Positions 47,094 through 64,000 of a DNA stretch of 64,000 nucleotides are shown here, in pieces. The position numbers were made by a program, and so were the translations under genes. The notes under the pieces are model-generated. The model worked only from the letters and a program-made list of their open reading frames with translations, was not told where the DNA came from and searched no databases. Source of the stretch: a virus. Within the stretch, counting starts at the first letter, position 1. Each line of letters begins with the position of its first letter. The DNA lies in the IMG/VR virus record IMGVR_UViG_3300028833_000004, one strand, 5' to 3'.

Positions 47094-48118
47094 TTGTAGA
47101 TAATTTATTCCATGATATAGTTCGGGGAAAGAATGGTCTTAATGCCGGATTAAGTTCGGGCATTGACAAGATAGATAAGATAACTTATGGTATTCAAAGA
47201 AAGTGGTTTACTACTATATTTGGAGATTCAGGCTCAGGTAAGAGTCAGCTCAGTTTATATACTGCTGTGTATTATCCATTTAAGCAATTAATGGAAAATC
47301 CAAGCTTAAATATAAACTGGCTAATTTTTAGTTTTGAGATGAGCTCAGAAGTACTACTAGCTAAACTATTATCTTTACATATATATGATGAATATCATCT
47401 AGTTGTACCCTATGAACATATTTTATCTTTAAGAGGCATTATTTCAGAACAAGAATATGTTTTAGTCATGAAGTCTAAACCATGGCTTGAAGAATTTGAA
47501 AAAAGATGCCAAATTATAGATAAACCAGTAACATCTAGAGCTCTTTACGGTATATGTAAGGAATGGAGTAGAAAATTTGGTAACTATAAAGAGATTGAGA
47601 GGACTGATGAATATTTAAAGGAAGACTATATTCCCAATGATCCACAACAATATTTAATTGTAATTGTGGATCATGTTAGTCTTCTTTCTTTAGATTCTGG
47701 ACATACTAAAAAACAAGAAATTGATATGGCTTGTGAATATTTAATACATTTCAGGAATAAATGTAATTTTACTGTATATGTAGTTCAACAAGCTAATAGA
47801 AATTTCAAGTCTATGGACAGGCGACAAGGCGGCTATCAACTATTACAATTAGATGATGCAGCTGATTCATCAGGTCCTTCACAAGCTAGTGAAGTAGTTA
47901 TTGGCATATTTCATCCATTCAGAGAACGTTTACCGACATGTGAAAAATATGATATAAGAAAACTGCAAGACCGATTTAGGTTATGCCAAGTCTTAAAACA
48001 AAGATTTGGTGTAGCTGATAGAAGTGTTGGTTGTGCTTTTTGGGGTGAGATTGGATATTGGAAAGATCTTCCCCTACCTAATGAAATTACAGATTATTCT
48101 CAATATTTAAATCCTTAA
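47090..48118 (+). CDS. DnaB-like replicative helicase (RecA-fold domain)
   Basis: Walker A is GDSGSGKSQ and Walker B is LIVIVDHVSLL. FRNKCNFTVYVVQQANR is also present. Confidence 0.7.
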   Translation: MIVDNLFHDIVRGKNGLNAGLSSGIDKIDKITYGIQRKWFTTIFGDSGSGKSQLSLYTAVYYPFKQLMENPSLNINWLIFSFEMSSEVLLAKLLSLHIYDEYHLVVPYEHILSLRGIISEQEYVLVMKSKPWLEEFEKRCQIIDKPVTSRALYGICKEWSRKFGNYKEIERTDEYLKEDYIPNDPQQYLIVIVDHVSLLSLDSGHTKKQEIDMACEYLIHFRNKCNFTVYVVQQANRNFKSMDRRQGGYQLLQLDDAADSSGPSQASEVVIGIFHPFRERLPTCEKYDIRKLQDRFRLCQVLKQRFGVADRSVGCAFWGEIGYWKDLPLPNEITDYSQYLNP

Positions 48119-48154
48119 GATTATAAAACATTTTTATTTTAAAACATTACTATT

Positions 48155-48886
48155 ATGAGTATCTTACCACAAACAAAAACCGTTAAAAAGACTGATGATC
48201 CTAAAAACTTGATTATATTTGGATTGCCTAAGGTAGGCAAGACTTCAAGTTTAGCAAAACTTCCAAATAATCTTATTATTGACCTTGAAGACGGAACTGA
48301 TTATATTGAAGGTTTTGTATATAAAGCAAATAAAATCAAAGATTTATATGAAGTGTCACAAGCACTTCGTAATGAGGAACATCAGTTTAAATTTGTAACT
48401 ATTGATACAATTACAGCCCTTGAAGAATTAGCTATTAAATTAGCTTGTAAAAACGAGGGTGTAGAATCTAAAGAGCAATTATTTAATCTTCCATATGGAA
48501 GAGGATATTCAGCTCATAGAGATGCGGTTAAAGAGATATTAAGCTGGTTTTATGGAATTGGTGTCAATGTAATTCTTACAGCGCACGTAAAAGACAAATC
48601 TTTGGCAGAAGGATCAACTGAACTTAACGTGAAGACACTAGATTTGGGAGGTAAACTCTCAAACATCCTTTCTGCAGACTCAGATGCTATCTGTTATGTT
48701 TATCGTGATGTTGAGAATGGTAATCTAATGGCTAACTTCGGTGATATGAATTCAGTTTTAACTGGAGCCAGATCAGCGCACTTAGCTGGTAAAACTATTT
48801 GTCTTGCTGAACGTAAACAATTAGAAAATGGAAATTATGATTTAATCACACATTGGGACACCATTTATCCAAGCTTAAATGAATAA
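48155..48886 (+). CDS. AAA_24/Sak4-like RecA-fold ATPase
   Basis: Walker A is GLPKVGKTS and Walker B is FVTIDTITALEE. Confidence 0.65.
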   Translation: MSILPQTKTVKKTDDPKNLIIFGLPKVGKTSSLAKLPNNLIIDLEDGTDYIEGFVYKANKIKDLYEVSQALRNEEHQFKFVTIDTITALEELAIKLACKNEGVESKEQLFNLPYGRGYSAHRDAVKEILSWFYGIGVNVILTAHVKDKSLAEGSTELNVKTLDLGGKLSNILSADSDAICYVYRDVENGNLMANFGDMNSVLTGARSAHLAGKTICLAERKQLENGNYDLITHWDTIYPSLNE

Positions 48887-49274
48887 TCTTGAAAATTATG
48901 ATGTTGAATTGTTGGAGAATAAATTGATTTTATCTCCAACAATTATTTCTTTATTAAATGCCCAGGTTGGAGATAGAATTGAGATAGAATATATCGAAAA
49001 AGATGGAGTAATTATTCCAATTATTATCAAATCACAAGCTGGGAATAAATTAACTAAAAGTAATACAGTATCTTTTAGGGGTAAAGCTAATGTAGATTTA
49101 GCTTCTTATGGAACTAAATTTAAGGCTGAATTAATAGATTCTATTATATGCTTATATGGAAATAATCCTGAGTATAAAATATATAATGGAGTTCAGTCTG
49201 CTTTGAAAAATATAGATAAATCAATAATAGAAAACACTAATTTTAACATTAACATTAATTCATTCACATTATGA
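48879..49274 (+). CDS. hypothetical protein
   Basis: 131-aa ORF. Confidence 0.55.
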   Translation: MNNLENYDVELLENKLILSPTIISLLNAQVGDRIEIEYIEKDGVIIPIIIKSQAGNKLTKSNTVSFRGKANVDLASYGTKFKAELIDSIICLYGNNPEYKIYNGVQSALKNIDKSIIENTNFNININSFTL

Positions 49275-49897
49275 ACTTTAGTTTTGTAGAAAATGTAAAA
49301 GTATCTGCTCCTGTTTTGGAACCTAATAAAATTCACTCTGTAGTATTTAATGGCTGTGAAGCTCGTACAATTGAATCTGCCAAAGGTAAATATGATGTTT
49401 TGGATATTAAATTTTCCAATGCTGATGGACAATTTACCGACACAGTATTTGATCCGGGTGAAGATGTGGATACAGATGGTATGTTTGGAAAAAATCCATC
49501 TAATGTAAAAGCCTTGGCTGTAAAAGTTAAACATTTGTTGGATGCAGTGTGCCCAGAAAATTCTCCTAAAGTTTCACAACTTCAAGGTTCATGGCTGGAA
49601 ATTCGTAATCAAATTATTGAACTTACTGCTCCAGGTATTGGTAAAGAGACTAAAATTAAATTATTAGGTCGAGAGCGTGCAGATCAAATGGGAAATAAAT
49701 CTATTTATCCAGAATTTCCTGGATTCTTTGCTAAATATGATAGAAACGGAAATCTTTATTTAGCTACCAATTTTATTGGAAATTCTGTTTATTTTAAATC
49801 TTCTGAGTTAACTAAAATTAAAAATATGCAAACAGCTACACCAACTCCTATGGGTTCAGAAGAGTCTGGTAGTAAAACAGTAGATTATGATTTTTAA
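49271..49897 (+). CDS. hypothetical protein (candidate ssDNA-binding protein by position only)
   Basis: 208-aa ORF between the recombination-type ATPase and the primase. No motif verified. Confidence 0.55.
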   Translation: MNFSFVENVKVSAPVLEPNKIHSVVFNGCEARTIESAKGKYDVLDIKFSNADGQFTDTVFDPGEDVDTDGMFGKNPSNVKALAVKVKHLLDAVCPENSPKVSQLQGSWLEIRNQIIELTAPGIGKETKIKLLGRERADQMGNKSIYPEFPGFFAKYDRNGNLYLATNFIGNSVYFKSSELTKIKNMQTATPTPMGSEESGSKTVDYDF

Positions 49898-50901
49898 TGA
49901 AATTTCCAGATTTAGAAACTAGGATAACAAAAGATTTTTTACTTTCTAAAAATTCTGAAGAAACTTATATGCAGACCTACTTAGGAGTCCCCGTAAAAAA
50001 GGGACTCCTAATAAGTCCACTTAGAAATGATAGAAGACCTACTGCGAGTTTTTATAGAAATAAAAATAATGAATTAATTTTTCATGATTTTGGAACTGGT
50101 TTTCATAGTAATTTTATAGGTGTTGTTATGTTTAAACATAATTGCACTTATCACGAAGCTTTAAAAATAATTGCTGAAGATTTTGGATATATTGAAAAGG
50201 AATCGAATAGACCCGAAGTTAAAATCAAGCAATCTAAAATTCAGATAGAAGAAAAACAAGAAACAATTATTCAAATAGAAAAACAAAATTTTCAAGATTA
50301 TGAATTAAAGTGGTGGGAATCATTTGGAATACATAAAGAAACATTAGAAAAATTTAAAGTTTACTCTTGTAAATCTGTATTTTTAAATGGTACATATTTA
50401 GCATCATCATCTAAAAATAGTATGATTTTTGGATATTATTTTGGGAAACGTGGTGGAAATGAAATTTGGAGAATATATTTTCCACAAAGAAAACAATATA
50501 GATTCCTGAGTAATTCCGATAAATTAATTGTTCAAAATTCTTTAAATATTCCAAAGACTGGAGATCTATTAGTAATATGTAAATCTATGAAGGATTGTTT
50601 ATTATTTTATGAATTAGGAATTCCGGCAATTGCCCCATGTAGTGAAGTTCAATTTGTATCAGATCAACAATTGGCTAGATTAAAATCTAGATTTAAAGTA
50701 ATTGTTGTATGTTATGATAATGATATGACTGGAATACATTTTATGCGAAAAATAAAAAAGAAGCATCCAGAACTTCATTATTTTTTTATTCCTAGAAAAT
50801 ATGCTAAAGATCCCAGTGATTTTTGTAAAGCTTTCGGAATTGAAGAAACTAAAAAACAAGTTGAGTTATTAAAACAATATTATTTAAATGAAGAAAAATA
50901 A
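49897..50901 (+). CDS. DNA primase (Toprim-type)
   Basis: The N-terminus has PLRNDRRPTASFY...FHDFGTG. Toprim-like segments are LLVICKSMKDCLLFYELGIPAIA and VVCYDNDMTG. Confidence 0.55.
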   Translation: MKFPDLETRITKDFLLSKNSEETYMQTYLGVPVKKGLLISPLRNDRRPTASFYRNKNNELIFHDFGTGFHSNFIGVVMFKHNCTYHEALKIIAEDFGYIEKESNRPEVKIKQSKIQIEEKQETIIQIEKQNFQDYELKWWESFGIHKETLEKFKVYSCKSVFLNGTYLASSSKNSMIFGYYFGKRGGNEIWRIYFPQRKQYRFLSNSDKLIVQNSLNIPKTGDLLVICKSMKDCLLFYELGIPAIAPCSEVQFVSDQQLARLKSRFKVIVVCYDNDMTGIHFMRKIKKKHPELHYFFIPRKYAKDPSDFCKAFGIEETKKQVELLKQYYLNEEK

Positions 50902-51262
50902 AAAAGAATTAGCCCAACTTGGTAAAAGAAATAAAAGGAAAGGCAACAGATTTGAACTTGAGGTTATTAAGAAACTGAAAGAAATTGGATATGCTGATTG
51001 TGTTTCTAGTAGAAATCAAGACAAGACTGCTGATGCTAATAAAGTAGATATTATAAGTAAAAGTTTACCTGTATTAATTCAATGTAAATATACAAAGAAT
51101 ACCCCAAATTATTTTGGAATTGAAAATGATTGTTTAGACAAATCTAAACCATTTACAATAATTTGGAAAAAATCAGGTGAAAATGGACATAATAGTCCTG
51201 GTACAGTAGCAATGATTCCTTTCGATTATTTTTTGACATTGCTATCGTCTGAGGGACGTTAA
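50888..51262 (+). CDS. PD-(D/E)XK nuclease, Holliday-junction-resolvase-like
   Basis: GNRFELEVIKKLKEIGY...KVDIISK...IQCKYTKN. This follows the E...D...(Q/E)xK arrangement typical of Hjc-like or endonuclease-like folds. Confidence 0.45.
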   Translation: MKKNKKELAQLGKRNKRKGNRFELEVIKKLKEIGYADCVSSRNQDKTADANKVDIISKSLPVLIQCKYTKNTPNYFGIENDCLDKSKPFTIIWKKSGENGHNSPGTVAMIPFDYFLTLLSSEGR

Positions 51263-51284
51263 ATATTACGATAAAAATAACAAA

Positions 51285-51719
51285 ATGATAAACATAGAGA
51301 ATGTAACTAGACCTAAAGGATTTGCTCCTTTTAGAAATATAAAAAGATATTATCATGAAAAATATGTGGAGCAATTTCTAATAGCCTCTTTAAAAGAAGG
51401 ATTAATTGATGATTTTGAAAGTGAATATAGACTCTATATTCAAACAGCATTTGCTAAAAAGCAGGTATTTTTAGATTTCGTTATTAAGAAGGGGAATTCC
51501 ATAGGATTCATAGAAGTCGATGGACCTCAACATTTTAAATACATAGAACAATTCCATAAAAACGGAATTTCCGATTTTATAAAGCAGCAAAACAGAGATA
51601 AAATTGTTAATAAATTCTGTTTAGAGCATGGAAAATTACTTAGATTACCTACAACCCTCGAAGATAATAAAGTTGATAAAAAATTAAAACTCTTTATTAA
51701 TACATTATGCGAGGATTAG
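51285..51719 (+). CDS. PD-(D/E)XK-like endonuclease (DUF559/Vsr-like pattern)
   Basis: FLDFVIKKGNSIGFIEVDGPQHF. Ends on TAG. Confidence 0.4.
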   Translation: MINIENVTRPKGFAPFRNIKRYYHEKYVEQFLIASLKEGLIDDFESEYRLYIQTAFAKKQVFLDFVIKKGNSIGFIEVDGPQHFKYIEQFHKNGISDFIKQQNRDKIVNKFCLEHGKLLRLPTTLEDNKVDKKLKLFINTLCED

Positions 51720-52222
51720 GTATTGTATGTGATTGCGATCAATGTATTGCTGACTTTTGTGGTGGTTTTGAAAAAGAATTCAATGTTTCTTATCAAGATT
51801 TAACTTCAGAAGAAATTACGCAGAAGGTTACAGATTTAAAATATAATTATAAATTTTGGGAAAATTTACCAAAACTAAATGATTTAGATTTTGAACCTTT
51901 AGCTTATTGTACTGCCCGAATAAATTCTAAATATACCACTAAAAAATGGCTCAAAAAGAATAATTTTCCAAATAGTCCTGTATATCAGGTGATGGGATAT
52001 AAATTAAGTAAAGTCAGTCAATTAAAAAGAATTCCATTAAAAGATAATGAAATTAAGATATTTATAGATGATAGCTGGAAAAATGTGTCAGATGCCTTAA
52101 ATGCAGGTATTCCAGCTTTTTTGTATAATACTCCATATAATCAGGATATTGACACGCCTCTTAGAATTATGGATTTAAAATTTAAAACTATTTGTCATGC
52201 TTATAGAAAATTTTATTTCTAA
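51707..52222 (+). CDS. HAD-like 5'(3')-deoxyribonucleotidase candidate
   Basis: The N-terminal IVCDCDQCIADF resembles HAD motif I (DxDxx). Size and context fit NT5C-like enzymes. Support is weak. Confidence 0.35.
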   Translation: MRGLGIVCDCDQCIADFCGGFEKEFNVSYQDLTSEEITQKVTDLKYNYKFWENLPKLNDLDFEPLAYCTARINSKYTTKKWLKKNNFPNSPVYQVMGYKLSKVSQLKRIPLKDNEIKIFIDDSWKNVSDALNAGIPAFLYNTPYNQDIDTPLRIMDLKFKTICHAYRKFYF

Positions 52223-53264
52223 TTCAACTGTTCAGGTTGTTGATGTTACTGGTGGAAAGATGCCTGATTCGGAATATTTTAAGATTCCAGCAATTAGTAA
52301 TTCAAAATTAAGTTTACTTAATGCAGATCAGGGTGGGGATAAAGCTAAATATTTAGCAGGATTTCAACATGGCTTTAATAGTTCTCTTCTTTTGGGAACT
52401 TGTGTACATGGAAAGATATTATCCGAAGATGAAATATTAGTTAGTGATTATGAGGGAAAGCCTTCAGGTAAACTTGGTTATTTTATTGAGAAAGTTTATA
52501 AATATCGAAAACTTGGAGAATCTATAGAGTCCTCTATATCTAAGGCCTCTATTGACGCTGATTATTATAAGAATAAAATCACTCCAAAAATACTCAGAAA
52601 TGCTTTACAAAAAGGTCTAGATTATTATATAAGATTATCACATGGGGAATTTGATGACCCAATAAAAGATGTATATGTTTTACCTAAAAAAGATTTAGAA
52701 ACTTGTAACAGATGTGTAAAATCTATCAAGAATAATTTCTTTATAAAAAGAATTTTATCTGAAAATCTTATTCAAGAAAAGAAGTTTATGAATGAGTATG
52801 CATTTTTTGCAGATTTCTTAGTAACTCTCCCGGATAAATCCCAAATGACCTTAAAGTTAAAAGGCAAAGCCGATAGTATCGTAATAGATCCAGAGAAGAA
52901 AATAATATATTTAAATGATGTAAAAACTACTAGTAAACCTATTTATAATTTTATGGATAAAGTTATAAATGGACAAATAGTATCTGGAGTATTATCTCAT
53001 CATCATTATTATAGACAATTTGCTCTATATATGTTATTTTTAAAATGGTATTGCGAGAAAACGTTACATTTAACAGGATATACTTATAGAGTTAATGTTT
53101 GGGCAGTAGAAACTACAGGGGAAAATAAAGCTGAAAACTTTCCAATCAATCAAGCTTGGTTAGATTTAGGTAAAAAAGAGTTAAAATCATTATTAATTCA
53201 AATAGCATTTTATCAATTATATGGCTGGGACAAAGACTACGAACAATATGTGCGAGACCTATGA
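52197..53264 (+). CDS. PD-(D/E)XK exonuclease (RecB/Cas4-like fold)
   Basis: LKGKADSIVID...IYLNDVKTT gives a D...D/ExK core. Confidence 0.55.
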   Translation: MLIENFISNSTVQVVDVTGGKMPDSEYFKIPAISNSKLSLLNADQGGDKAKYLAGFQHGFNSSLLLGTCVHGKILSEDEILVSDYEGKPSGKLGYFIEKVYKYRKLGESIESSISKASIDADYYKNKITPKILRNALQKGLDYYIRLSHGEFDDPIKDVYVLPKKDLETCNRCVKSIKNNFFIKRILSENLIQEKKFMNEYAFFADFLVTLPDKSQMTLKLKGKADSIVIDPEKKIIYLNDVKTTSKPIYNFMDKVINGQIVSGVLSHHHYYRQFALYMLFLKWYCEKTLHLTGYTYRVNVWAVETTGENKAENFPINQAWLDLGKKELKSLLIQIAFYQLYGWDKDYEQYVRDL

Positions 53265-53619
53265 AAGTAAATCAAACTTTTATATGATGAATTATTCCTT
53301 AGGCACACTAACTTCTGGAAGTTTTAAAGAAAAGTTAGAACTTATAGAATTGATATGTTATCTTACATTTCAATTACGCGAAAAAGATTCAAGTAAATAT
53401 AAAAATACAAAAGATGTATTAGAGGAACTTTTTGGAAAAACTTTCACAGTTGGAAATGGTAAAGATGATTATTTTATAAATTTAAGTCTTTTATGTGATG
53501 ATCTTTTATATCAAGTAATAACAGTTAATAAACCAGATAAATATAAAGATTTAGATAAAGTTGGTAATATAATTGCACAACGGATTAGAGAAATAACTGA
53601 TCAGTGGTGCCCATTTTAA
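53221..53619 (+). CDS. hypothetical protein (start uncertain)
   Basis: This is the ORF-track ORF. Internal ATGs at 53248 and about 53284 would reduce the overlap with the upstream gene. Confidence 0.55.
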   Translation: MAGTKTTNNMCETYESKSNFYMMNYSLGTLTSGSFKEKLELIELICYLTFQLREKDSSKYKNTKDVLEELFGKTFTVGNGKDDYFINLSLLCDDLLYQVITVNKPDKYKDLDKVGNIIAQRIREITDQWCPF

Positions 53620-53624
53620 TAGAC

Positions 53625-54248
53625 ATGAAATTACAAATTAAAGAATGTACTGGATTTACCAAAGAGGAGGCTTTTCAAGAGTTAAATTTTCACCCATGCC
53701 ATGCTGCAATTCCAGGTACAAATTGTACACAGGCATGGACGAAGGCTGGAAGTCCTGTTCCTGGAACTAAAGACTTTTCAATTTTTGCTGCAGAACAATT
53801 AGCCGAAAAAACAAAAAATACCCCAGGTTTAGGATTATATGTTGTATTAAGCCCCCCAGTAAAGGATACAAGAATACGACCCTATAAAATATATAATAAT
53901 ATTGTAGAAAGTACTAGAGAGTGGACTTTTAATTATATGATTGTAGAGGCAAATATCTCTATGGAAACTTTTCCAGAAATAGATACAACTGATGATGGGG
54001 ATATAATTAAAACATATTATGAAGAGCCTGATATTGTAGAATATGGGAAAATTATAAAATTTGTAGATAATAAGGCTGAAGCATTGTCGGAAATTAAGAG
54101 ATTAACGGCAAAAAATCATAAAGATTATGCAATAATGGCTGTTAAAGTTCCAGATATAGTTCCTATTGCTGGTTATTCTATATATACACCATCAGCAGGA
54201 ACTTGTGTAGGTAAGTATATAGCTTTTGGATTTGATAAGGAGGATTGA
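53625..54248 (+). CDS. hypothetical protein
   Basis: I place the start at ATG 53625, after the upstream stop. Confidence 0.6.
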   Translation: MKLQIKECTGFTKEEAFQELNFHPCHAAIPGTNCTQAWTKAGSPVPGTKDFSIFAAEQLAEKTKNTPGLGLYVVLSPPVKDTRIRPYKIYNNIVESTREWTFNYMIVEANISMETFPEIDTTDDGDIIKTYYEEPDIVEYGKIIKFVDNKAEALSEIKRLTAKNHKDYAIMAVKVPDIVPIAGYSIYTPSAGTCVGKYIAFGFDKED

Positions 54249-54249
54249 T

Positions 54250-54555
54250 ATGGAAGTAGTAATTATTTTAATGTTAATATTTAGTATTGGGGTTTTAATT
54301 AATATTGGAAATGATGTTAGAGGCCTCCTATCAGCATTAAAGAATGACTTTACTGAAGAATGGTTTTGTAATGATCCGGAAATAAATTCAGAATTAAATA
54401 AAAGACCCATTGTTCAAAATTTTTTCACAAAGCCTCAGTTATATAAAATTATAAATATTATAGCCCAAATTTATTCCTATTCTAAACTTATTATTTATTC
54501 TCTTACAATAATAGGATTAGATGTTATAGCAATATTATTTTATAAAGGTTTATGA
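54250..54555 (+). CDS. membrane protein
   Basis: Hydrophobic segments MEVVIILMLIFSIGVLINI and LIIYSLTIIGLDVIAILFY. Confidence 0.55.
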   Translation: MEVVIILMLIFSIGVLINIGNDVRGLLSALKNDFTEEWFCNDPEINSELNKRPIVQNFFTKPQLYKIINIIAQIYSYSKLIIYSLTIIGLDVIAILFYKGL

Positions 54556-55310
54556 TTGAATTATTAAGTGAAGTATTAAAGGGGAAATCAACAATAATAA
54601 AAAACAAGCAGTATTTATCGTCAGAGTCTTATATTCAACCTTTTATAGATAGATTTAAGGATTTTGATGTTACAATTACATGTAATGTTAAACCTGCCAA
54701 TCAATTATCTGTAACAGATAATATTACAGATATAGTATATAACAGGGTGCATATTCAAGTTGTTTTTAATTCACCTGGAACCTATGAAAATGTAATAGGA
54801 ATGATTTATGGTTTAGATACTAGAATGCCTGTTGCAAAATTTTATAGAGGATTATTAGATTCAAATGGAAATTTCATTTCTTTTAATTCTGACGATTTGC
54901 AATGCCAAAAAATTGAAGAAGAATTAACATTAGACTATTCTTTTGTTGATGAATCTATAGACATGTTTAAAAATCAAGATAAGTGGAATAAACTAGCTTT
55001 AGATGAAATAGATGCTTTATCAAATTGTAGTGTTCCATATATGGAATTGACTCAATTGTTGGGAGAATGGGTTGATAAATCTCTATCATTAATTGATATT
55101 TCTGATTTTGGAAAGGTTAAATTAGCTACGTCTATTCCAATTAATGGATATAAATATTTAGTAAAAGATGTGTCAAGTCCTTATTTCACTGAGGTTGATA
55201 CTAATAAATTTAATATTTATAGAGCATTGCTTCAAGCACTTTCAGATGAAGATGATATAATTAATATAATTGAAAAAACCTATTTAATAAATAAGCTTAT
55301 AGGGCTATGA
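54552..55310 (+). CDS. hypothetical protein
   Basis: 252-aa ORF. Confidence 0.6.
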   Translation: MIELLSEVLKGKSTIIKNKQYLSSESYIQPFIDRFKDFDVTITCNVKPANQLSVTDNITDIVYNRVHIQVVFNSPGTYENVIGMIYGLDTRMPVAKFYRGLLDSNGNFISFNSDDLQCQKIEEELTLDYSFVDESIDMFKNQDKWNKLALDEIDALSNCSVPYMELTQLLGEWVDKSLSLIDISDFGKVKLATSIPINGYKYLVKDVSSPYFTEVDTNKFNIYRALLQALSDEDDIINIIEKTYLINKLIGL

Positions 55311-55651
55311 CAGAACAAGAATTAAATGAATTTATAACTCAAATAACTTTAGGGCAATTTAACTCTGATAGATATGTATTAAATGTTTATAATGACGGAT
55401 TATATATTAGAGATGTTGACCTAGACGTTATGGTTTATTTTACTTTATATGATAAGGATATAAATCCCTTTAAAAATATTTATAGGAGATTTAAATACGG
55501 AAGTGTTTATCTTGTTACAATAGATGATCCATATGAAATAATTCCAATTTCAAAAGAAACTTTTATAAGATTTAATTCTTTATTAAAAACTTTTTATGAT
55601 AAAGAAAAAGCTAAAGTTCTTAGTGATCGAAAGAAAGCTTTTAATTTTTAA
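55307..55651 (+). CDS. hypothetical protein
   Basis: 114-aa ORF followed by a terminator. Confidence 0.6.
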   Translation: MTEQELNEFITQITLGQFNSDRYVLNVYNDGLYIRDVDLDVMVYFTLYDKDINPFKNIYRRFKYGSVYLVTIDDPYEIIPISKETFIRFNSLLKTFYDKEKAKVLSDRKKAFNF

Positions 55652-55656
55652 TATAA

Positions 55657-55693
55657 AATTCCCCCTTTAAATTTTGTTTATTGGGGGAATTTT
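55657..55693 (+). terminator. intrinsic terminator
   Basis: AATTCCCCC (55657-55665) pairs with GGGGGAATT (55683-55691), followed by TTTT. Confidence 0.7.
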
Positions 55694-55731
55694 AGTAACT
55701 TTGTATCTTTTCACTTTTAAATAAAAATCTT

Positions 55732-57885
55732 ATGAAAGTACTAAAACGAAATGGACAAATTGTTGATTATGAGCCTGATAAGATTAAGAAGGCTATTTTT
55801 AATTGTTTTTTAAGTGTCAATCATGAATTTCCAGACATGATTACTGAACATGTTTTTGACAATGTTGTTGGAGAACTTATGCAACAAGATTATGATGGGC
55901 GAACTGATCCATTCTCAGTTGAAGAAATTCAAGATCTTGTTGAAAAATCTATGATGGATGAGAAGGAATATGACGCCGCTAAAGCTTATATTTTGTATAG
56001 AGAGAAGCATAAAAATTTAAGAGATTTAGCACAATCGGATGTTGAATTTATCACAAACTTTGTTAATTCAAAAAATGCTGCTAACGCTACAATTGATGAT
56101 AATTCTAATGTTGGGACTAAGGGAGTCGGGGTATTAAACGCAGAAATACATAAAGCAATTAATGCTAATACTAATATGTATCTTTGGGAGAATGAGGTAA
56201 AGAAACTTTATCCAGAACTTTCTATAAAACAAATGAGGACTGATTTTAAAACAATTTGTTATCCTCACGATTTTTCTAGCCAAATTCTCATGTCATACTG
56301 TATGTCTGTTTCAATGTATCCATTTTTAACTGATGGAATTGCTAAGCTTGGAGGTAAATCTGTCACACCAAAATCTTTGGAGTCTTTCTGTGGAATATTT
56401 ATTAATCTTGTATTTGCTTTAGCAAGTGAAGTAAAGGGGGCAGTCGCCTGTCCAGAAGTTTTAATGTATATGGATTCATTTGCACGAAAGGATTACGGTG
56501 AAGATTATATATACCATTTGAATGATAAAATTGGAAATAGAACAATCAGACAACAATTACATCAATATTTTCAACAAATAACCTATTCTATTAATCAAGT
56601 TGCCGGATCACGTGGAATGCAGAGCCCGTTTACTAATTTTTCTTTCTTTGATAAATACTTCTTTGAGGGAATGTTTGGTGATTTTTATTTCCCAGATGGA
56701 AGTAAGCCGGTTTGGGAAACCACTAATTGGTTACAACAAGAATATTTACACTGGTTGAATCAGGAGAGATTAAAATGTATTTTAACCTTTCCAGTTTGCA
56801 GCTACGCTTGTTTAATTGAAAATGGTGATTTTAAAGATAAGTCTACTTTTGATTTTGTATGCCAAGAATATTCTGAAGGTAATTCATTCTTTCTATATAC
56901 CAGTAAAACAGTTGATTCTTTGAGCAGTTGCTGCCGTTTACAAAATTCTTTAACTGAGAACACATTCAACTTCACAAATGGGCAAATAGGAGTAATGACT
57001 GGATCAAAAAATGTAATTACCTTAGATTTAAATCGAATAATGCAAGATTTTCAAAAGTCACAAGGATACTTTGATTTCCCAATAAATAGACCTATTGATG
57101 ATTGGATTGATGATTTTAAATTATATTTAATAAACATTTTGGATAGGGTTTATAAATATCAAACGGCTTATAATAAGTTACTTCATTGGGCGAAAGACCA
57201 TCATTTATATGCAGCATATGATGCCGGATTTATTGATCTAGACAAACAATATTTAACTATTGGAATAAATGCACTTAATCAAATGGCTGAAGTTGTAGGA
57301 ATAAAATGTAATAACAATCCAGATTATAAAAGACTGTGTAGAGAATTATTTGGATTAATAAAAGAACAGAATTCTTTACATCGTACTGAAACAGAGAGGT
57401 TTAACTGTGAACAGGTTCCTGCGGAGTCCGCCTCCATAAAATTATATAATAGAGATAAAAATGATGGATATTGGACACCTTCTGATACTAATCTTTATGC
57501 TAGTTATATATTTAAACCAAATGATTTAGAAATAAGTGTTCTTGATAAAATAATTTTACATAGTTCTGAATTTGCAGCCGATCAAATGGATGGTGGGCAG
57601 GCATGCCATATAAATTTAGATTCACATCTATCAAAAGAACAATACAGAAAATTATTATTATTTGCTGCACAAAAAGGATGTAAATATCTTACCTTTAATA
57701 TCCCTAATTGTGAATGTGATGATTGTGGTTATATAGCTAAACAACCATTTAAAGTATGTCCCAAATGCGGAAGTACTCATATTTCTTTATGGGATAGGGT
57801 AATTGGATATCTTACAAAAATTAAAAATTGGTCTGAGGGACGTCAGATAGAACAGAAAACTAGAGTATATTCTAAAAATATTTAA
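55732..57885 (+). CDS. nrdD: anaerobic (class III) ribonucleoside-triphosphate reductase
   Basis: N-terminal ATP-cone (VLKRNGQIVDYEPDKIKKAI). C-terminal zinc ribbon CECDDCGY...CPKCGS. Glycyl-radical motif RVIGYL. Confidence 0.9.
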   Translation: MKVLKRNGQIVDYEPDKIKKAIFNCFLSVNHEFPDMITEHVFDNVVGELMQQDYDGRTDPFSVEEIQDLVEKSMMDEKEYDAAKAYILYREKHKNLRDLAQSDVEFITNFVNSKNAANATIDDNSNVGTKGVGVLNAEIHKAINANTNMYLWENEVKKLYPELSIKQMRTDFKTICYPHDFSSQILMSYCMSVSMYPFLTDGIAKLGGKSVTPKSLESFCGIFINLVFALASEVKGAVACPEVLMYMDSFARKDYGEDYIYHLNDKIGNRTIRQQLHQYFQQITYSINQVAGSRGMQSPFTNFSFFDKYFFEGMFGDFYFPDGSKPVWETTNWLQQEYLHWLNQERLKCILTFPVCSYACLIENGDFKDKSTFDFVCQEYSEGNSFFLYTSKTVDSLSSCCRLQNSLTENTFNFTNGQIGVMTGSKNVITLDLNRIMQDFQKSQGYFDFPINRPIDDWIDDFKLYLINILDRVYKYQTAYNKLLHWAKDHHLYAAYDAGFIDLDKQYLTIGINALNQMAEVVGIKCNNNPDYKRLCRELFGLIKEQNSLHRTETERFNCEQVPAESASIKLYNRDKNDGYWTPSDTNLYASYIFKPNDLEISVLDKIILHSSEFAADQMDGGQACHINLDSHLSKEQYRKLLLFAAQKGCKYLTFNIPNCECDDCGYIAKQPFKVCPKCGSTHISLWDRVIGYLTKIKNWSEGRQIEQKTRVYSKNI

Positions 57886-57889
57886 AATC

Positions 57890-58036
57890 ATGACTGTAGA
57901 AGAATTTATTTCAGAAATTAGCGAACATAAAGATTGTAAACTAATATTTCAATATTTTGATACTGAAGTACCTTTAGATACTTGCGAGTTATTATATAGT
58001 AAAAAGAAAAATAAATTAATAATTAAATTTGAATAA
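57890..58036 (+). CDS. small protein (48 aa), xxEFISE family
   Basis: MTVEEFISEISEHKDCKLIFQYFD.... Paralog of 58038..58208. Confidence 0.45.
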   Translation: MTVEEFISEISEHKDCKLIFQYFDTEVPLDTCELLYSKKKNKLIIKFE

Positions 58037-58037
58037 T

Positions 58038-58208
58038 ATGAAAGTAAGTGAATTTATTTCAGAATTTAAAGGATTTGAGGATTATGATTTCATTCTTCGA
58101 GTTAATGGTGGCGACTATTTGTCGGATGAAGAGTTAGAAGGTATGGAATTTTTAGTAGGTGCCAAAAAGAAAAAATTTATTCTAAATTTATCAGAATTTT
58201 TATTATGA
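58038..58208 (+). CDS. small protein (56 aa), xxEFISE family
   Basis: MKVSEFISEFKGFEDYDFILRVNG.... Its stop overlaps ATG 58205. Confidence 0.45.
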   Translation: MKVSEFISEFKGFEDYDFILRVNGGDYLSDEELEGMEFLVGAKKKKFILNLSEFLL

Positions 58209-58507
58209 TTTACGAAGTAACAAAAAATAGTTTAAGTTTAGATTTATCAGGTTTTACACTAGTCGACTTTTATGCCGACTGGTGTGGGCCTTGTAAGGTA
58301 TTATCAAATAATCTACAAGAATTTGAAAAAATTTATCCAAACATTAATATTAAAAAAGTTAATGTTGATGAGAATGATGAATTAGTTGAAAAATATAAGA
58401 TTAGAAATGTTCCTTCAATAATCTGTTTTAAACAGGGTATAGAATATTGGAGACATTCTGGTTTAATGACTCTAGATCAATTAAGAGAAAAATTTATTGA
58501 ACTATGA
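58205..58507 (+). CDS. trxA: thioredoxin
   Basis: Active site WCGPCK within a 100-aa thioredoxin-sized ORF. Confidence 0.9.
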   Translation: MIYEVTKNSLSLDLSGFTLVDFYADWCGPCKVLSNNLQEFEKIYPNINIKKVNVDENDELVEKYKIRNVPSIICFKQGIEYWRHSGLMTLDQLREKFIEL

Positions 58508-58656
58508 CTTTAAGAGAAATACTTAATGCATACCCCGAACAGGTTTATGATTATGAAATTATCCTTAGAAATGCTTATACACCTGATACTGAAATGCAGG
58601 TATATGATGCACTTATAAATCGTCAAGATGAACATTTAATTATTGAATATGTATGA
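58504..58656 (+). CDS. small protein (50 aa), probably same family as 57890/58038
   Basis: MTLREILNAYPEQVYDYEIILRNAY...LIIEYV. It has ATGA overlaps at both ends. Confidence 0.4.
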   Translation: MTLREILNAYPEQVYDYEIILRNAYTPDTEMQVYDALINRQDEHLIIEYV

Positions 58657-59018
58657 TTTCGTCTTTACAAAATCCCGAAACTGAACATAATTTACCAATT
58701 GTTAGAGCCGAATTAAGTATTAGTGAGACTTTTAGCAAAAGTGTTACTGTTCCTACTGTCAATTATATTTCTACTGGTATAGAAAAGGATGAAGATGGTA
58801 ATGCGGATCTTAATATAGATTGGAAAAATAGTGATTTATCAGAAATATATTCTGAGAGATATTTAACTTTGAAGGAAATATTAGAACAAGTCCCAAAAGT
58901 TTTTTCAGAGATATTAGATTATCAATTACCTCCTAATTTAAAGAAAAGATTAAAGGTATTAAGAGATAACTGCCTTAATTGGGATGAAAATGAATGCGAA
59001 ATAATAAGTGAAAAATAA
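58653..59018 (+). CDS. hypothetical protein
   Basis: 121-aa ORF. Confidence 0.6.
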   Translation: MISSLQNPETEHNLPIVRAELSISETFSKSVTVPTVNYISTGIEKDEDGNADLNIDWKNSDLSEIYSERYLTLKEILEQVPKVFSEILDYQLPPNLKKRLKVLRDNCLNWDENECEIISEK

Positions 59019-59233
59019 TGGATAAGGCATTTACTGATAAAGAATTAACAGAATTATTAAAATTTGAGAATGAACATTTAAAGAGAAAATGCTATAAATT
59101 GCCTGATAGTAAATTTAAAACTATGGGATTTACTATCAGGCAATCTTTTAGTAGTAATATAGGAATTTCTACAATAATCACATGTGATTGTTGTAATGAA
59201 AGTAAAGATGTAACTGATTATGATGTTTGGTAA
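59018..59233 (+). CDS. hypothetical protein
   Basis: 71-aa ORF. Confidence 0.5.
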   Translation: MDKAFTDKELTELLKFENEHLKRKCYKLPDSKFKTMGFTIRQSFSSNIGISTIITCDCCNESKDVTDYDVW

Positions 59234-59306
59234 TTATAGAAGACATTATTACAAGAATACTATAATGATGATAGTGCTTCATATTAAATGAAAATAGTAA
59301 ATCTAT

Positions 59307-59867
59307 ATGCTTAAATATACAACAACTCAAGTAACATTTAGAGAAATTCCAGATGAAATTACTCTATGTATAAACATTTCAAACTGCCCAATACACTGCC
59401 CAGATTGTCATTCTAAAGAACTTTGGAAAGATATTGGTGCCGAACTTACAGTAGAAACATTAATTAAATTATGTGATGATAATGATGGTGTTACTACCAT
59501 TTGTTTTTTAGGTGGAGATTCTGACACAGAAGAATTGGGATATTTAATTAATGCATTATGTCAATCTCACGATAATTGTTTTACTAAAAACATTGCTTGG
59601 TACTCTGGAAGGGATAATTTAAAAGAAGTATCTGGTATAAGTTATGTAAATCTCGATTATATTAAATTGGGTCATTTTGATAAAAATCGTGGTGGCTTAG
59701 ATAAACCTACAACTAATCAGCGATTATATAAATTATGGTCCACTTCTCCAGATACAGAATTAATTGCTGGATTAGGAGATGGAGATATCATGACAATAGA
59801 CGTAGAAGATATAACTTATAAATTTTGGAATAATGTTAATATTCAGAAAACCGGGTTGGATACTTAA
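59307..59867 (+). CDS. nrdG: anaerobic RNR activating enzyme (radical SAM)
   Basis: CxxxCxxC cluster, present as CPIHCPDC near the N-terminus. Size and context next to nrdD fit. Confidence 0.8.
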   Translation: MLKYTTTQVTFREIPDEITLCINISNCPIHCPDCHSKELWKDIGAELTVETLIKLCDDNDGVTTICFLGGDSDTEELGYLINALCQSHDNCFTKNIAWYSGRDNLKEVSGISYVNLDYIKLGHFDKNRGGLDKPTTNQRLYKLWSTSPDTELIAGLGDGDIMTIDVEDITYKFWNNVNIQKTGLDT

Positions 59868-60033
59868 TCCAAGTGATAAAATAGTTAATTCAATTATTAA
59901 AAAAATTGATTTAAATAATGGAGAATGCCCATGTAATAATCCTGGGAAAACTCATGAGGATAGAATCTGTCCCTGTAAAGAATATAGGGAAAATAATATA
60001 TGTCACTGTTCATTGTATATAAAACAAATATGA
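59833..60033 (+). CDS. ferredoxin-thioredoxin reductase catalytic-subunit-like Cys-motif protein
   Basis: GWILNPSDKIV...CPCNNPGKTHEDRICPCKEYRENNICHCSLY reproduces the CPC...CPC...CHC spacing of FTR catalytic chains. Confidence 0.55.
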   Translation: MLIFRKPGWILNPSDKIVNSIIKKIDLNNGECPCNNPGKTHEDRICPCKEYRENNICHCSLYIKQI

Positions 60034-60377
60034 AAAAACTAGATGAATTTACAGAAGGAATGTCTATAGGAAATATTATTCTTCCTAACTATGGTGAAAA
60101 AATCAAATTCGATTTAGAAGAATTAAATAAAATTATAGATAAGTCTGATTTTATTTATATAATTGGCGGAGATTATGATTTAGATGCAAAAAAAGATTTA
60201 GTTGCTTATATATCATGGTATAAACCAGATGTTTATACTTGTGGAGTAACTAATAAAAAATTCTATGTAGATAATGAGGGACTTTTTTATGATTTTTATA
60301 AAACACCAAAAATAGTTTATAGAAATAGACACAATCCAGATAATTCAACAACAATAAATATTTTTGATTATGAATGA
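60030..60377 (+). CDS. hypothetical protein
   Basis: I place the start at ATG 60030, which has an ATGA overlap. Confidence 0.55.
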   Translation: MKKLDEFTEGMSIGNIILPNYGEKIKFDLEELNKIIDKSDFIYIIGGDYDLDAKKDLVAYISWYKPDVYTCGVTNKKFYVDNEGLFYDFYKTPKIVYRNRHNPDNSTTINIFDYE

Positions 60378-60846
60378 CATAGAAATAAAAATAGTAAATA
60401 CAAGTAAAAATCCCCTTCCTACATATAGCAAGGATGGGGATGCATGTGTAGACTTACGTGCGGTTATTGAGCCTAACTCTATATCTAATTTAGCAAATGC
60501 TGCAATGCATAATGGTTCGTTATTAATATATCCAGATGGGCGAGCTCTTATTGGAACTGGTCTACACATACAATTTCCAAGAGGATATATGTTTAAAATC
60601 CAAGAACGATCTGGTTTAGGTGCAGACGGAATTAAAGTTTCTGGCGGTGTAGTTGATTCCAATTATACAGGAGAAATAAAAATAGCACTTCTAAATACTT
60701 CCAGCAATGTATTTTCTGTAAACTATGGAGATAGAATTGCTCAGGGATGTCTAATTCCTATTCCACACATGGTTTTTAAGGAGGTTGATACTTTAGATGA
60801 AACTAATAGAGGTTCTGATGGATTTAATTCTACTGGTGTAAAATGA
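60364..60846 (+). CDS. dut: dUTP pyrophosphatase (trimeric type)
   Basis: All five motifs are present: GDACVDLRA, ERSGLG, GVVDSNYTGEI, GDRIAQ and RGSDGFNSTG. Confidence 0.9.
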   Translation: MIMNDIEIKIVNTSKNPLPTYSKDGDACVDLRAVIEPNSISNLANAAMHNGSLLIYPDGRALIGTGLHIQFPRGYMFKIQERSGLGADGIKVSGGVVDSNYTGEIKIALLNTSSNVFSVNYGDRIAQGCLIPIPHMVFKEVDTLDETNRGSDGFNSTGVK

Positions 60847-62012
60847 AAAGTGAATATTTAGTAAAATTAAATAATAAGAACAGAATTCAAAGGGTTAAAA
60901 TTAGTTTAACTGCTCAAGATGAAATATATTTATTAGAAAGAATAACTGGTCAATTTGGTGGGAAAGAAACCCACCAACCAGTTATTAAAATTGAATCTGG
61001 CAAAGCGGGAAGAAATATTGCTGAGCAGGCTTCACTTATGTATAATTCTTATCTGAAGAAATATTTGGATTCTGGATATGTAAGACTTTCAAAATTAACC
61101 TACAAAAAAGAGTCTGAATTATCTGAAGATGATATTAAAACATTATTAGGAGATTCTGTTACTGATCAATCTGGAATACCAAAACCAATGCTTGCTAAAT
61201 CATCAGATCAATGTTCTGTAAATATTTTTGATAAGGAGTGGTATGTGAGCAGAAAATTAAATGGAGTGCGTTGTTTAATGTACTTTAAAGACGGAGAAGT
61301 TCATACAGCATCCAGAGGCGGTGGAACTTATGATATTGCCACCACCCATATAAGAACAGATGAACATGTAATAAACTTCTTTCAACAAAATCCAGATATT
61401 ATTTTAGACGGAGAATTGTATAAACATGATGTATTATATCCTCTTCAAAGAATATCGGGCTTAGCCAGACTGCAAGAATGGGATGATGAATGTTCCAAAT
61501 TAGAATATTGGGTATATGATTTAATATCAAAAGAGCCATTCAGTAAAAGATATGAATTTTTAGAAAACTCTGAATGGTACTTTGAAAACACAAATATAAA
61601 AATCTTAGAACAGAAACCTTTAAGTGGCTGGCAGAAAATTGAGAAAGAACATAACTTATATGTTAGTGAGGGGTTTGAAGGACTTGTAGCTCGAAATCCA
61701 AATAAGGAGTATGGAATTAATAAACGATCTGGTATTTATATGGTAAAACTTAAAAAATATCAAGATCAAGAATTTGAAATAGTGGGAGTAAAAGAAGGAC
61801 TTAGACCTGAAGATATGTGTTTTATTTTAAAGACTGCTGAAGGAAAGGAATTCTCAGCAAAGCCAACAGGTAATGCAGACACTAGAGTTTATTATATAGA
61901 ACATCCAGAAGACTTTATTGGCAAACAAGCTACCTGTAAATTCTTTGAGTGGTCTTCTGATAATATACCCCTACAACCAATTTTAATACATATTAGACCA
62001 GAAGATGAATAA
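60843..62012 (+). CDS. ATP-dependent DNA ligase
   Basis: Motif I is KLNGVR (adenylation Lys). EGLVAR and LKKYQD follow, with a downstream OB-like region. Confidence 0.8.
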   Translation: MKSEYLVKLNNKNRIQRVKISLTAQDEIYLLERITGQFGGKETHQPVIKIESGKAGRNIAEQASLMYNSYLKKYLDSGYVRLSKLTYKKESELSEDDIKTLLGDSVTDQSGIPKPMLAKSSDQCSVNIFDKEWYVSRKLNGVRCLMYFKDGEVHTASRGGGTYDIATTHIRTDEHVINFFQQNPDIILDGELYKHDVLYPLQRISGLARLQEWDDECSKLEYWVYDLISKEPFSKRYEFLENSEWYFENTNIKILEQKPLSGWQKIEKEHNLYVSEGFEGLVARNPNKEYGINKRSGIYMVKLKKYQDQEFEIVGVKEGLRPEDMCFILKTAEGKEFSAKPTGNADTRVYYIEHPEDFIGKQATCKFFEWSSDNIPLQPILIHIRPEDE

Positions 62013-62352
62013 AAAAGTATATAGAGTCCATCTAACTGAAGGATATCAATTAAAAGCCGCTGATGAATTGATTAGTAAATTGAATATAAGACTTGGTGAA
62101 TCTGAGTCTTATATTCAAGAATTACAATATGATAATAAACAGCTTCAAGACAAGAATAAAGATCTAGAAAAAGAAGTTGAAAGACTTAAAGAATTATTTA
62201 AAAGATTTTTAGATAAATATTCTTCCGATGTAAAAGAACTTCGTAAAGAACCTTTTATTAAAGAATATACAGAAGAAATTGCTAAACTTAAAGAGAGTGT
62301 TCAGAATTTAGAAAAAGTTAGAGATAATTTGATATTTAAACTAAATGCATAA
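62005..62352 (+). CDS. coiled-coil protein
   Basis: 115-aa ORF with heptad-like charged repeats. Confidence 0.55.
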   Translation: MNKKVYRVHLTEGYQLKAADELISKLNIRLGESESYIQELQYDNKQLQDKNKDLEKEVERLKELFKRFLDKYSSDVKELRKEPFIKEYTEEIAKLKESVQNLEKVRDNLIFKLNA

Positions 62353-62366
62353 CTACTATTATATAT

Positions 62367-62633
62367 ATGAAAGAAATTTTTTCTAAATGGCTTCAAGCTA
62401 AACAATTAACATTGGAAGATATTATTACAATCTTACTGGAGTATGATTCATTATATAATGATGGATCATTAACTCCAGAGAAGGTTGTTTTTCTTTTAAA
62501 TTCTGTAAGTCTTCCAGTTAAAACTATGATAAATTCAGCAATGTTTAAAATTGCATATAAAAATGGATGGGATATTACATCCGTATATGATAAAAATGGA
62601 AAATTAATAATGAGATTTACAAATATTAATTAA
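62367..62633 (+). CDS. hypothetical protein
   Basis: 88-aa ORF, the last sizeable + strand gene. Confidence 0.55.
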   Translation: MKEIFSKWLQAKQLTLEDIITILLEYDSLYNDGSLTPEKVVFLLNSVSLPVKTMINSAMFKIAYKNGWDITSVYDKNGKLIMRFTNIN

Positions 62634-62795
62634 AATAAAACTTATGACTTCAGAACAAATTATAGAAAGATTGCTAGAAAATGATCAAATAACTGCTTCT
62701 GAAGCACTACAACTTTTACGAGATATAAGCAGTAATATCCATATATTATTCCAAATCAAATAACCTATCCATATAATCAAATTATATATTAAATC

Positions 62796-62839
62796 AATAA
62801 CCCCTATCGGAGAAATCCGATAGGGGTTATTTTTTTTTT
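62796..62839. terminator. bidirectional intrinsic terminator at the convergence of the + and - gene sets
   Basis: AATAACCCCTATCGGA (62796-62811) pairs perfectly with TCCGATAGGGGTTATT (62816-62831). The loop is GAAA. A T-run reaches 62839 and there are A residues upstream. Confidence 0.85.
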
Positions 62840-64000
62840 AAACTAAATGAGTATCTTTTATTATACTAAATAAATCATTTGAGAAATTTAATAAACTATA
62901 TTCATCAGACTCAATGGTTTTGGCTGCATCCTAGAATGTTTTTTGTATAAAATCAGTTCCAATTATTCCAAATTGATCTACTGGTTTAATTAAAGATTCA
63001 TAAATATTCAATTCCCTAGCTGTTCTATCAAATAAATCTACAGTTGTAGCAACCGTAGCATTTTTCTTCAAATCTGAAAAATTTTCCATAATTGCTGCTA
63101 TAATTGCTGATACTATGGCTGCAAATAGTAAATTAAACAAAAATAATTTAGTATTTTCCCATTGTTGTGGATTTTCTCTGATATGTTGAATATCTCCAGT
63201 AGCAACATCATGAATTGTTTTAGCTGTAGACACGGCTAAACCTTCAATCGGGTTAGCTTTCCATTCAAGAACTGGTTCCAAAGCCTCTCCTGTCGTCGTG
63301 TCAATTCCATTTTCAGAAATACCATTTTCTCCAGCGACTACCTTTCTAGTCAATTTAATTTTATCATCATATTTGTAATATAATTTCTTACCTGAAATTG
63401 GATCTTCTAAATGAACTGTAGAACCTACCGATGAATCTATACCAACAGCCAGATATTTTCTTATTTCCGCAGGCATGAAAGTTAAGAAATTGGTATACAT
63501 AGTCCACCACCAACCTTTCTACATGTTTGCACGTTCCTCATGTCCATAATAACCATATATTAAACCAATCTATTCTTTTATTGAATTCTACTCCTAGACA
63601 GTATAAGCTCTTGGTAGAGGATCGTAAATTGGGTTATTTGAGTCATCTGTAACCTAACCAAATCTTAATTCCCCACCCTAGGCATTTTTCCAGCCTTCAT
63701 GAGAAAATTGTTGCATTTTGACTGTGTATAAAGCTTTCTATTCAACCCATTTTTTATCTTTTGTAAGATTTTTATGTCTATTTTTCCAGAAATAATTTAT
63801 ACGTTCATCTTTTTCGATGTCATAGACCAATTTACCATCAACTTCAGAATGTGCATTAAATGTACCATCCGCCTTCATTTTTGCAATAAATATAATCATT
63901 CTATTAAACCAATCTGGTGCAACTACATTTAAATATAACATTCGAGATCCTAAATTATGTATACCCCATCTGTCAAAGGCTAATGTTTCACCGATTACAT
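62838..64000 (-). CDS. C-terminal part of a large late (virion-type) protein containing 8 in-frame TAG codons; 5' end lies outside the window
   Basis: I translated the - strand frame by hand from 64000 down to TAA 62838-40. The only stops are TAG at 62931, 63519, 63570, 63588, 63594, 63654, 63678 and 63738 (codon start coordinates). It fuses track ORFs 63738..63941 and 62931..63500. No function is assignable. Confidence 0.8.

Follow-up and report, generated by a model that had tools for sequence, protein, structure and literature searches.

Hundreds of crAss-like phages are known to reassign TAG to glutamine (Gln) or TGA to tryptophan (Trp), chiefly in late genes, and among them the code switches at short phylogenetic distance (Yutin 2021, PMC7886860). 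Recoding also occurs in other gut phage clades and was proposed to time the expression of late and lysis genes (Borges 2021, bioRxiv 10.1101/2021.08.26.457843), and code 15 has been confirmed by metaproteomics for two crAss-like phages (Peters 2022, PMC9523058). Zeta crAss-like phages, with genomes of 155-190 kb, have a layout of forward replication genes and reverse virion genes (PMC12386605). Recoding of late genes by code 15 is already well described in crAss-like and other gut phages, and the phage analysed here is a further case. It is represented by a stretch of 64,000 nucleotides (nt) of the IMG/VR virus record IMGVR_UViG_3300028833_000004, hereafter the window, at the right end of which a minus-strand gene (62838..64000) is continuous only when TAG is read as a sense codon. 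Very probably, the plus-strand block of this genome is written in the standard code and the minus-strand block reads TAG as Gln, the feature in the window being the 3′ portion of the gene that closes the minus-strand block. The source appears to be a phage of gut or rumen type, uncultivated and distantly crAss-like.

Compared to the code-15 gut phages (the crAss-like Beta, Delta and Zeta groups and the clades of Borges et al.), this phage shares the confinement of in-frame TAG to one block that holds the lysis and large late genes, and a standard-code replication module in which some genes end on TAG. It is also alike in the alignment of TAG with Gln, in having close relatives with the standard code, TAG as Gln or TGA as Trp, and in its two opposed gene blocks. 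By contrast, no gene for a suppressor tRNA, release factor 2 (RF2) or glutaminyl-tRNA synthetase (GlnRS) was found in the 82.6 kb read, though RF2 and GlnRS are rare even in the known members. The readable sequence spans the window-equivalent positions -9,936..72,633 (82.6 kb) of a genome larger than ~129 kb, so that over a third of it was unread; this size was estimated from the fact that the 117-kb JGI contig of the same phage is not among the exact matches of either PolA or the last plus-strand gene. Altogether, the phage adds one more independent case of a standard-code early block beside a recoded late and lysis block, an arrangement thought to time late-gene expression.

The amber-interrupted gene and the minus-strand block

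Translation of the minus strand from 63998 to 62838 gave 387 codons, in which eight internal stops, all of them TAG, precede a closing TAA. The region contains the following features:

62838..64000, minus strand: 3′ end of the late gene (last 386 codons plus stop of a 1544-codon gene), the remainder lying past the window end
63738..63740, minus strand: in-frame TAG 1, codon 87 of the window frame, closing the code-11 open reading frame (ORF) 63738..63941; homologues have A or Q
63678..63680, minus strand: in-frame TAG 2; D in fragment P0001
63654..63656, minus strand: in-frame TAG 3; Q in fragment P0001
63594..63596, minus strand: in-frame TAG 4; K in P0001, Q in P0010
63588..63590, minus strand: in-frame TAG 5; E in fragment P0001
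63570..63572, minus strand: in-frame TAG 6, in the motif SIKE-TAG-IG; Q in most listed family members, including P0001 (237 amino acids, aa)
63519..63521, minus strand: in-frame TAG 7, in the motif ERANM-TAG-K; Q in nearly all listed family members, including the fragments P0001, P0019 and P0021
62931..62933, minus strand: in-frame TAG 8, closing the code-11 ORF 62931..63500; G in fragment P0002
62838..62840, minus strand: TAA, the true stop of the late gene
62796..62831, unstranded: bidirectional intrinsic terminator, a hairpin whose 16-bp stem has an A run before it and a T run after it

As read from the letters in the initial annotation, the ORFs 63738..63941 and 62931..63500 are both pieces of the single minus-strand frame 62838..63998, and the peptide translated by hand across the gaps agrees with the computed translation. 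The count of eight interruptions, exclusively TAG, was likewise reproduced by locating each of them, and no TAA or TGA intervenes before the TAA at 62838-62840, next to which the terminator hairpin begins 6 nt further on. A six-frame scan for long frames that contain TAG and lack TAA and TGA returned 62838..63998 as the sole frame with many TAG codons in the 64-kb window. Since, at the 29% G+C of this genome, 5.6-12.5% of out-of-frame codons are TAA or TGA, a run of 386 codons without either has p < ~1e-9, and its origin by chance is excluded. The hairpin at 62796..62831 scored positive as a terminator on both strands, in a scan for intrinsic terminators that found four sites against 0.1 expected, and it divides the convergent plus- and minus-strand gene blocks.

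Exact look-up of the window proteins retrieved the same phage from public assemblies, namely the Logan contig SRR9006729_1055 (93,808 nt), the ENA contig ERZ27257202 k141_6601460 (158,647 nt), the JGI contig 3300031992 Ga0310694_10000118 (117,361 nt) and several short contigs. They match the window letter for letter throughout all overlaps, and window positions 45732..64000 are identical to part of the Logan contig. There, the full late gene (L003 17107..21741, minus strand) has 1544 codons, with 45 in-frame TAG, no other in-frame stop and a terminal TAA. Its product has an N-terminal PD-(D/E)XK-like domain, which is borderline in Pfam (PDDEXK_1, 21.6 bits with the cut-off at 22), and a hydrophobic helix at the C-terminus. 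The giant gene upstream is called as 3685 aa, and its final 1720 codons contain 38 TAG and neither TAA nor TGA. This giant protein (L023 15106..20267, minus strand) also bears an HEFTH motif (HExxH, zincin-like) ~170 aa before its C-terminus.

The other end of the minus-strand block begins ~1 kb left of the window start. Over this left late region, the JGI calls made with code 11 are fragments of 30-124 aa and the ENA calls are genes of 179-570 aa; six ORFs carry 4-22 TAG apiece. The first eight late ORFs tallied hold 95 TAG in 3526 codons (2.7%) with no in-frame TAA or TGA, and across more than 5000 late codons the interruptions are exclusively TAG. Comparison of coding density under tables 15 and 11, as initially proposed, separated the two blocks: with TAG as sense, ORF coverage rose from 0.31 to 1.00 in the right late region and from 0.37 to 0.84 in the left one, whereas that of the plus-strand block hardly moved (0.90 versus 0.93). 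With TGA as sense, by contrast, coverage of the right late region stayed at 0.31 and that of the left one rose from 0.37 to only 0.50.

Every translatable gene of the minus-strand block requires TAG as sense, except a Cys-rich ORF of 100 codons; a Cpn60/GroEL-like gene, present in the JGI call only, also appears to be free of TAG. The genes of this block, in this phage and its relatives, therefore need to be called with table 15, otherwise they fall into fragments as in the JGI calls. The Logan calls on the contig already read TAG as sense, yielding the products of 1544 and 3685 aa.

A decaying pseudogene, or TAGs that are sequencing or assembly errors, would also leave a frame broken eight times under code 11. 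However, errors or decay would have to produce TAG alone and never TAA or TGA over more than 5000 late codons, and orthologues in other phages likewise contain 19-48 in-frame TAG, or 17-20 TGA. Moreover, the JGI, ENA and Logan assemblies come from different samples and give one identical sequence, and because these three are independent, the TAGs are not assembly errors. This reading is effectively refuted, and we assign it a negligible probability.

Further observations concern the left part of the recoded block. A lysis cassette recoded with TAG lies at L011 480..1666 (minus strand), about 8.3-9.5 kb left of the window start. It comprises a GH24 lysozyme (PF00959, E 1.2e-10) with 9-10 in-frame TAG and a membrane protein of 133 aa with hydrophobic segments at both ends and three TAG. 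Both genes stop on TGA, which rules out that the late genes avoid TGA as a stop. Alignment of the lysozyme with solved structures spans one TAG, which falls at a variable position and gives no information on the amino acid. The Cpn60/GroEL-like gene mentioned above is called by JGI with code 11 as 486 aa or more (region of L011 1..489, minus strand), and the Cys-rich 100-aa ORF without TAG belongs to the same region; the two may be translated before the code switch.

The plus-strand block and the two-code model

The plus strand of the window carries the replication and nucleotide-metabolism genes, five of which end on TAG:

13..62633, plus strand: replication and nucleotide-metabolism block in the standard code, ~95 ORFs, ~17,600 codons
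3982..3984, plus strand: TAG stop of gene 3616..3984; read-through adds 18 codons and passes a second TAG
29334..29336, plus strand: TAG stop of gene 28764..29336; TAA two codons on
38182..38184, plus strand: TAG stop of gene 37894..38184; TAA six codons on
39303..39305, plus strand: TAG stop of gene 39027..39305; TAA immediately next
51717..51719, plus strand: TAG stop of gene 51285..51719; read-through adds 27 codons and overlaps the next gene

The products of this block include PolA, helicases, a DnaB-like protein, primase, NrdD/NrdG, thioredoxin, dUTPase, DNA ligase, ThyX and RNase H. Its 95 non-overlapping ORFs have no in-frame TAG in ~17,600 codons and stop on TAA (60), TGA (30) or TAG (five). 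The four TAG stops named in the initial annotation, those of the genes ending at 3984, 29336, 38184 and 51719, are all present, and a fifth was added at 39305. The stretches that follow the five stops do not look coding: they total 53 codons (18, 2, 6, 0 and 27), hold one more TAG and run into the next genes. Because the plus-strand TAGs sit exactly at gene ends and their read-through looks noncoding, TAG is a stop in the plus-strand block and a sense codon in the minus-strand block. The earlier proposal of two codes in one genome is thus supported for this sequence, on the absence of in-frame TAG from the plus-strand genes, their five TAG stops and the sense TAGs of the minus-strand block.

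Alternatively, code 15 might apply genome-wide, perhaps in the host too, and be always on, such that the apparent TAG stops of the plus strand are Gln codons before a nearby TAA. The Logan calls indeed apply it to the whole contig, which lengthens the TAG-ending genes by a few codons, and a back-up TAA lies 0 to 27 codons after the plus-strand TAGs. Nevertheless, such a code would have to leave ~17.6 thousand plus-strand codons without a single TAG, compared to 2.7% in the late genes, and to place the plus-strand TAGs only where code-11 ORFs end and the next gene begins. It would also have to accept extensions that contain another TAG and overlap the next genes. We thus consider a genome-wide code 15 very improbable and retain the model of a standard-code plus-strand block beside a recoded minus-strand block.

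By analogy with published phages, the early genes of this model would be translated by the unmodified host machinery. The phage would then render TAG readable, classically by means of a phage tRNA(CUA) charged with Gln by the host GlnRS. As TAG would be readable only from then on, the late and lysis proteins would be completed only after the code switch. Besides the giant proteins and the lysis cassette, the minus-strand block probably contains virion genes, as judged from the related scaffold MT835492.

Homologues and the residue encoded by TAG

The first homologue search returned only the fragments P0001-P0003, which cross the TAG positions of the window with D, Q, K, E, Q, Q / G / A. Two orthologues were then available from the phage collection: that of MT835470 is an uninterrupted standard-code ORF of 1529 codons, and that of MT837483 has 45 in-frame TAG. 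A profile search added three full-length Logan proteins with checked DNA; one of these has 19 TAG as Gln, and the other two (L014 and L016) use TGA as Trp (17 and 20 TGA, respectively), with TAG as a real stop. Finally, a HMMER scan of 1.84 billion representatives, with P0001, the 189-aa ORF and P0002 as queries, gave 59 family members, mostly of 1457-1629 aa. The homologues are long single proteins with sense residues at the TAG positions; this removes the objection, anticipated in the initial annotation, that they might be separate short genes beginning and ending at these TAGs. A single family of 1500-1600 aa hence occurs in three codes, namely the standard code in MT835470, TAG as Gln in the present phage, MT837483, MT835492 and L015, and TGA as Trp in L014 and L016. 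The lineage is handy for comparison, as the orthologues of one gene span all three.

Other searches had no such yield, and almost none of the late proteins of this phage match PHROG or Pfam families. PHROGs contained no family for the 386-aa product, and megablast of window positions 56000-64000 against the phage collection (at least 85% identity) gave no match. No relative was found for the C-terminus of the 3685-aa giant in IMG/VR or for a 96-aa protein of the left flank in JGI metagenomes. A homologue search with a concatenated query of three anchors gave no match, and exact look-up of the 189-aa code-11 fragment returned no record.

TAG in the minus-strand block almost certainly encodes Gln (translation table 15), as judged from composition and alignment. 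The 1544-aa protein contains 1.5% Gln encoded by CAA/CAG and 2.9% TAG, which sum to 4.4%; Gln accounts for 3.4-4.5% in the three DNA-checked orthologues without TAG recoding and for mostly 2.6-5.2% in the wider family, where some members may be table-15 translations. Similarly, CAA/CAG-encoded Gln makes up 3.18% of the codons in early genes compared to 1.82% in late genes, in which TAG adds 2.69%. Read with table 15, an example peptide spanning a TAG site with Gln is SIKEQIGLIYGYYGHEER.

An alignment of 48 homologues showed Q to be the commonest residue in the 45 TAG columns (15.4%, ~3.6x the family background), and Gln was the maximum-likelihood class at these columns when the residue classes of the protein itself served as references. 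In the three full-length homologues nearest to this protein (39-41% identity), Q occupies 34, 29 and 30% of the TAG columns, compared to 29, 17 and 13% of the CAA/CAG columns of this gene; the TAG positions are therefore at least as Gln-like as the true Gln codons. In addition, one TAG falls on the invariant Q of a QxxxY motif in the N-terminal PD-(D/E)XK-like domain, a column that is Q in the three DNA-checked orthologues without TAG recoding and in both TAG-recoded ones. Among the fragments, which are taken as code-11 calls, P0001 has Q at three of six TAG sites, and P0001, P0019 and P0021 all have Q at two conserved sites of the window.

Several points weigh against the two-code model with Gln, and they concern the residue, the naming of the block and the decoding machinery. 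As to the residue, threonine (Thr) and Gln come to a near tie in likelihood when the alignment is restricted to three distant DNA-verified orthologues and three fragments. The Q signal of the large alignment is possibly part-circular, in that some database homologues were translated with table 15, which could inflate Q at shared TAGs. The label "late" rests on gene content and synteny. As to the machinery, ARAGORN, Rfam (E up to 1) and a custom anticodon-loop scan revealed no tRNA(CUA) in the window, and none was found in the flanks either, that is, in the 82.6 kb read in all. Nor was a tRNA(CUA) found in the TAG-recoded MT835492 (121.6 kb), which has six tRNAs, for Asn, Asp, Thr, Met, Tyr and Ala, and the precomputed Pfam tables of the window genes list no release-factor or aminoacyl-tRNA-synthetase domain.

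The first of these points would fit a sense codon for another residue, such as Thr, Glu, Lys or pyrrolysine. With the restricted set, Thr came out slightly ahead of Gln, and many TAG columns are variable, with D, K, E, A and G in the closest fragments. Yet it is Gln that is depleted in late genes, by 1.4 percentage points, while Thr is higher there. Besides, the 3.6-fold enrichment of Q and its first rank by likelihood with 48 homologues, the TAG on the invariant Q of QxxxY, and a rate of Q matches at TAG columns no lower than at true Gln codons all argue for Gln. TAG to Gln is also the sole change reported for phages whose code is unlike that of their host (bioRxiv 10.1101/2021.08.26.457843). 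Another residue is accordingly very improbable, and TAG is taken as Gln below.

Decoding machinery, related phages and neighbouring genes

The suppressor tRNA with a CUA anticodon and the release-factor-related genes that the initial annotation had suggested looking for did not turn up in the sequence read. The custom scan sought a 5-bp stem enclosing a YTCTARN loop, with a T-loop motif further on, and nothing tRNA-like emerged. The window has one tRNA:

7847..7920, plus strand: tRNA-Arg(TCT), not a suppressor

These absences do not refute recoding, because over a third of the genome is unread. Moreover, a survey of TAG-recoded phages detected suppressors in only ~40% of them (bioRxiv 10.1101/2021.08.26.457843), and recoding matches suppressor tRNAs imperfectly in crAss-like phages (Yutin 2021, PMC7886860). 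An additional tRNA predicted by Rfam in MT835492 was considered as a suppressor and ruled out by its UGU anticodon (Thr). Within the left flank, a cluster of tRNA-Asn(GTT), tRNA-Cys(GCA) and tRNA-Trp(CCA) lies at L006 2963..3359 (minus strand), with anticodon loops inspected by eye. The spacer between its Asn and Cys tRNAs is 157 nt long, relatively G+C-rich and hairpin-laden, and has no Rfam match.

It is conceivable, though unlikely, that TAG is decoded as sense without a canonical phage tRNA(CUA), by a host tRNA, a host-encoded suppressor or an aberrant phage tRNA that escapes the tools. The host-tRNA version might involve, for example, a near-cognate tRNA-Gln(CUG), aided by phage interference with release factor 1. 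The lack of a CUA tRNA from both the 82.6 kb read here and the 121.6 kb of MT835492 is in keeping with such decoding, and the surveys that found suppressors in ~40% of recoded phages raise like options (bioRxiv 10.1101/2021.08.26.457843; PMC7886860). On the other hand, the unread third or more of this genome may hold the gene; MT835492 has no terminal repeat and an ORF running off its end, and is possibly incomplete; and near-cognate reading at 3% of late codons would demand very efficient suppression. That the lineage reads UAG as Gln at ~3% of late codons without any canonical phage tRNA(CUA) is accordingly rather doubtful. If true, the switch would operate via a mechanism not yet described, for instance a non-canonical RNA, host tRNA-Gln combined with inhibition of release factor 1, or the product of an unannotated plus-strand gene.

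The phage resembles the Crassvirales in several respects. The PolA proteins of IAS virus, cr111_1, cr106_1 and PhiCrAssBcn share 45-50% identity with its own. Similar to Crassvirales, including Zeta-group phages such as Lera, it has forward replication and reverse virion blocks, with giant ORFs closing the late block, and its genome, at more than ~129 kb, is in keeping with the large Zeta or Epsilon groups. The 82.6 kb read do not include its genes for capsid, portal and terminase. For the major head protein of the relative MT835492, the matches to crAss major head proteins are weak (24-26% identity, E 1e-5 to 7e-4), and PHROGs gave phrog_11589 (E 2e-8). The 1544-aa protein finds only a marginal match in annotated crAss genomes (E 5e-4, over 86 aa of the nuclease domain), so that the phage is best described as distantly crAss-like and not as a proven member of Crassvirales.

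Closer counterparts are the human-faecal scaffolds MT835470 (117 kb, standard code), MT835492 and MT837483, in which the orthologue of the 1544-aa gene likewise closes the late block and converges on the replication genes. The closest PolA is that of MT835470 (50.6% identity). MT835492 has the same two-code layout: its minus-strand block contains 604 TAG in 19,007 codons, the major head protein included, whereas its plus-strand block is in the standard code, with a TAG stop in nine of 92 ORFs. These scaffolds differ from the present phage in sharing only 20-27% protein identity for the 1544-aa gene and in their origin from human stool; they are unannotated, and no published description was found. 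A giant protein of 3401 aa in MT835492 (70709..80914, minus strand) contains the string GADYDIDKAY, DxDxD-like as in crAss virion RNA polymerases; PHROGs gave no match for it.

Some features of the plus-strand block stand apart from the recoding. Window positions 1-2000 and 18001-20000 form islands of 41-46% G+C, compared to 26-31% elsewhere; they carry one DUF6948 ORF besides ORFs that match no family, and their DNA may have been acquired recently. The adjacent ORFs 1181..1849 and 1971..2639, both of 222 aa, are not paralogues by comparison. Three tandem BspA-type LRR_5 paralogues with a C-terminal DUF7666 (324, 282 and 282 aa) are followed by a 91-aa ORF of DUF7666 alone, all within window positions 9200-12571 (plus strand). 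The lone minus-strand gene within the plus-strand block (window 6724-7476) has no in-frame TAG; it encodes a predicted DNA-binding protein of 250 aa, HTH_36/DnaD-like, and adjoins the sole tRNA of the window. Just 3′ of PolA, window positions 41426-43890 (plus strand) encode a DUF2201 protein (VWA/metallopeptidase-like) and a MoxR-type AAA_5 ATPase, a pair that recurs near the orthologous late gene in the relative L014.

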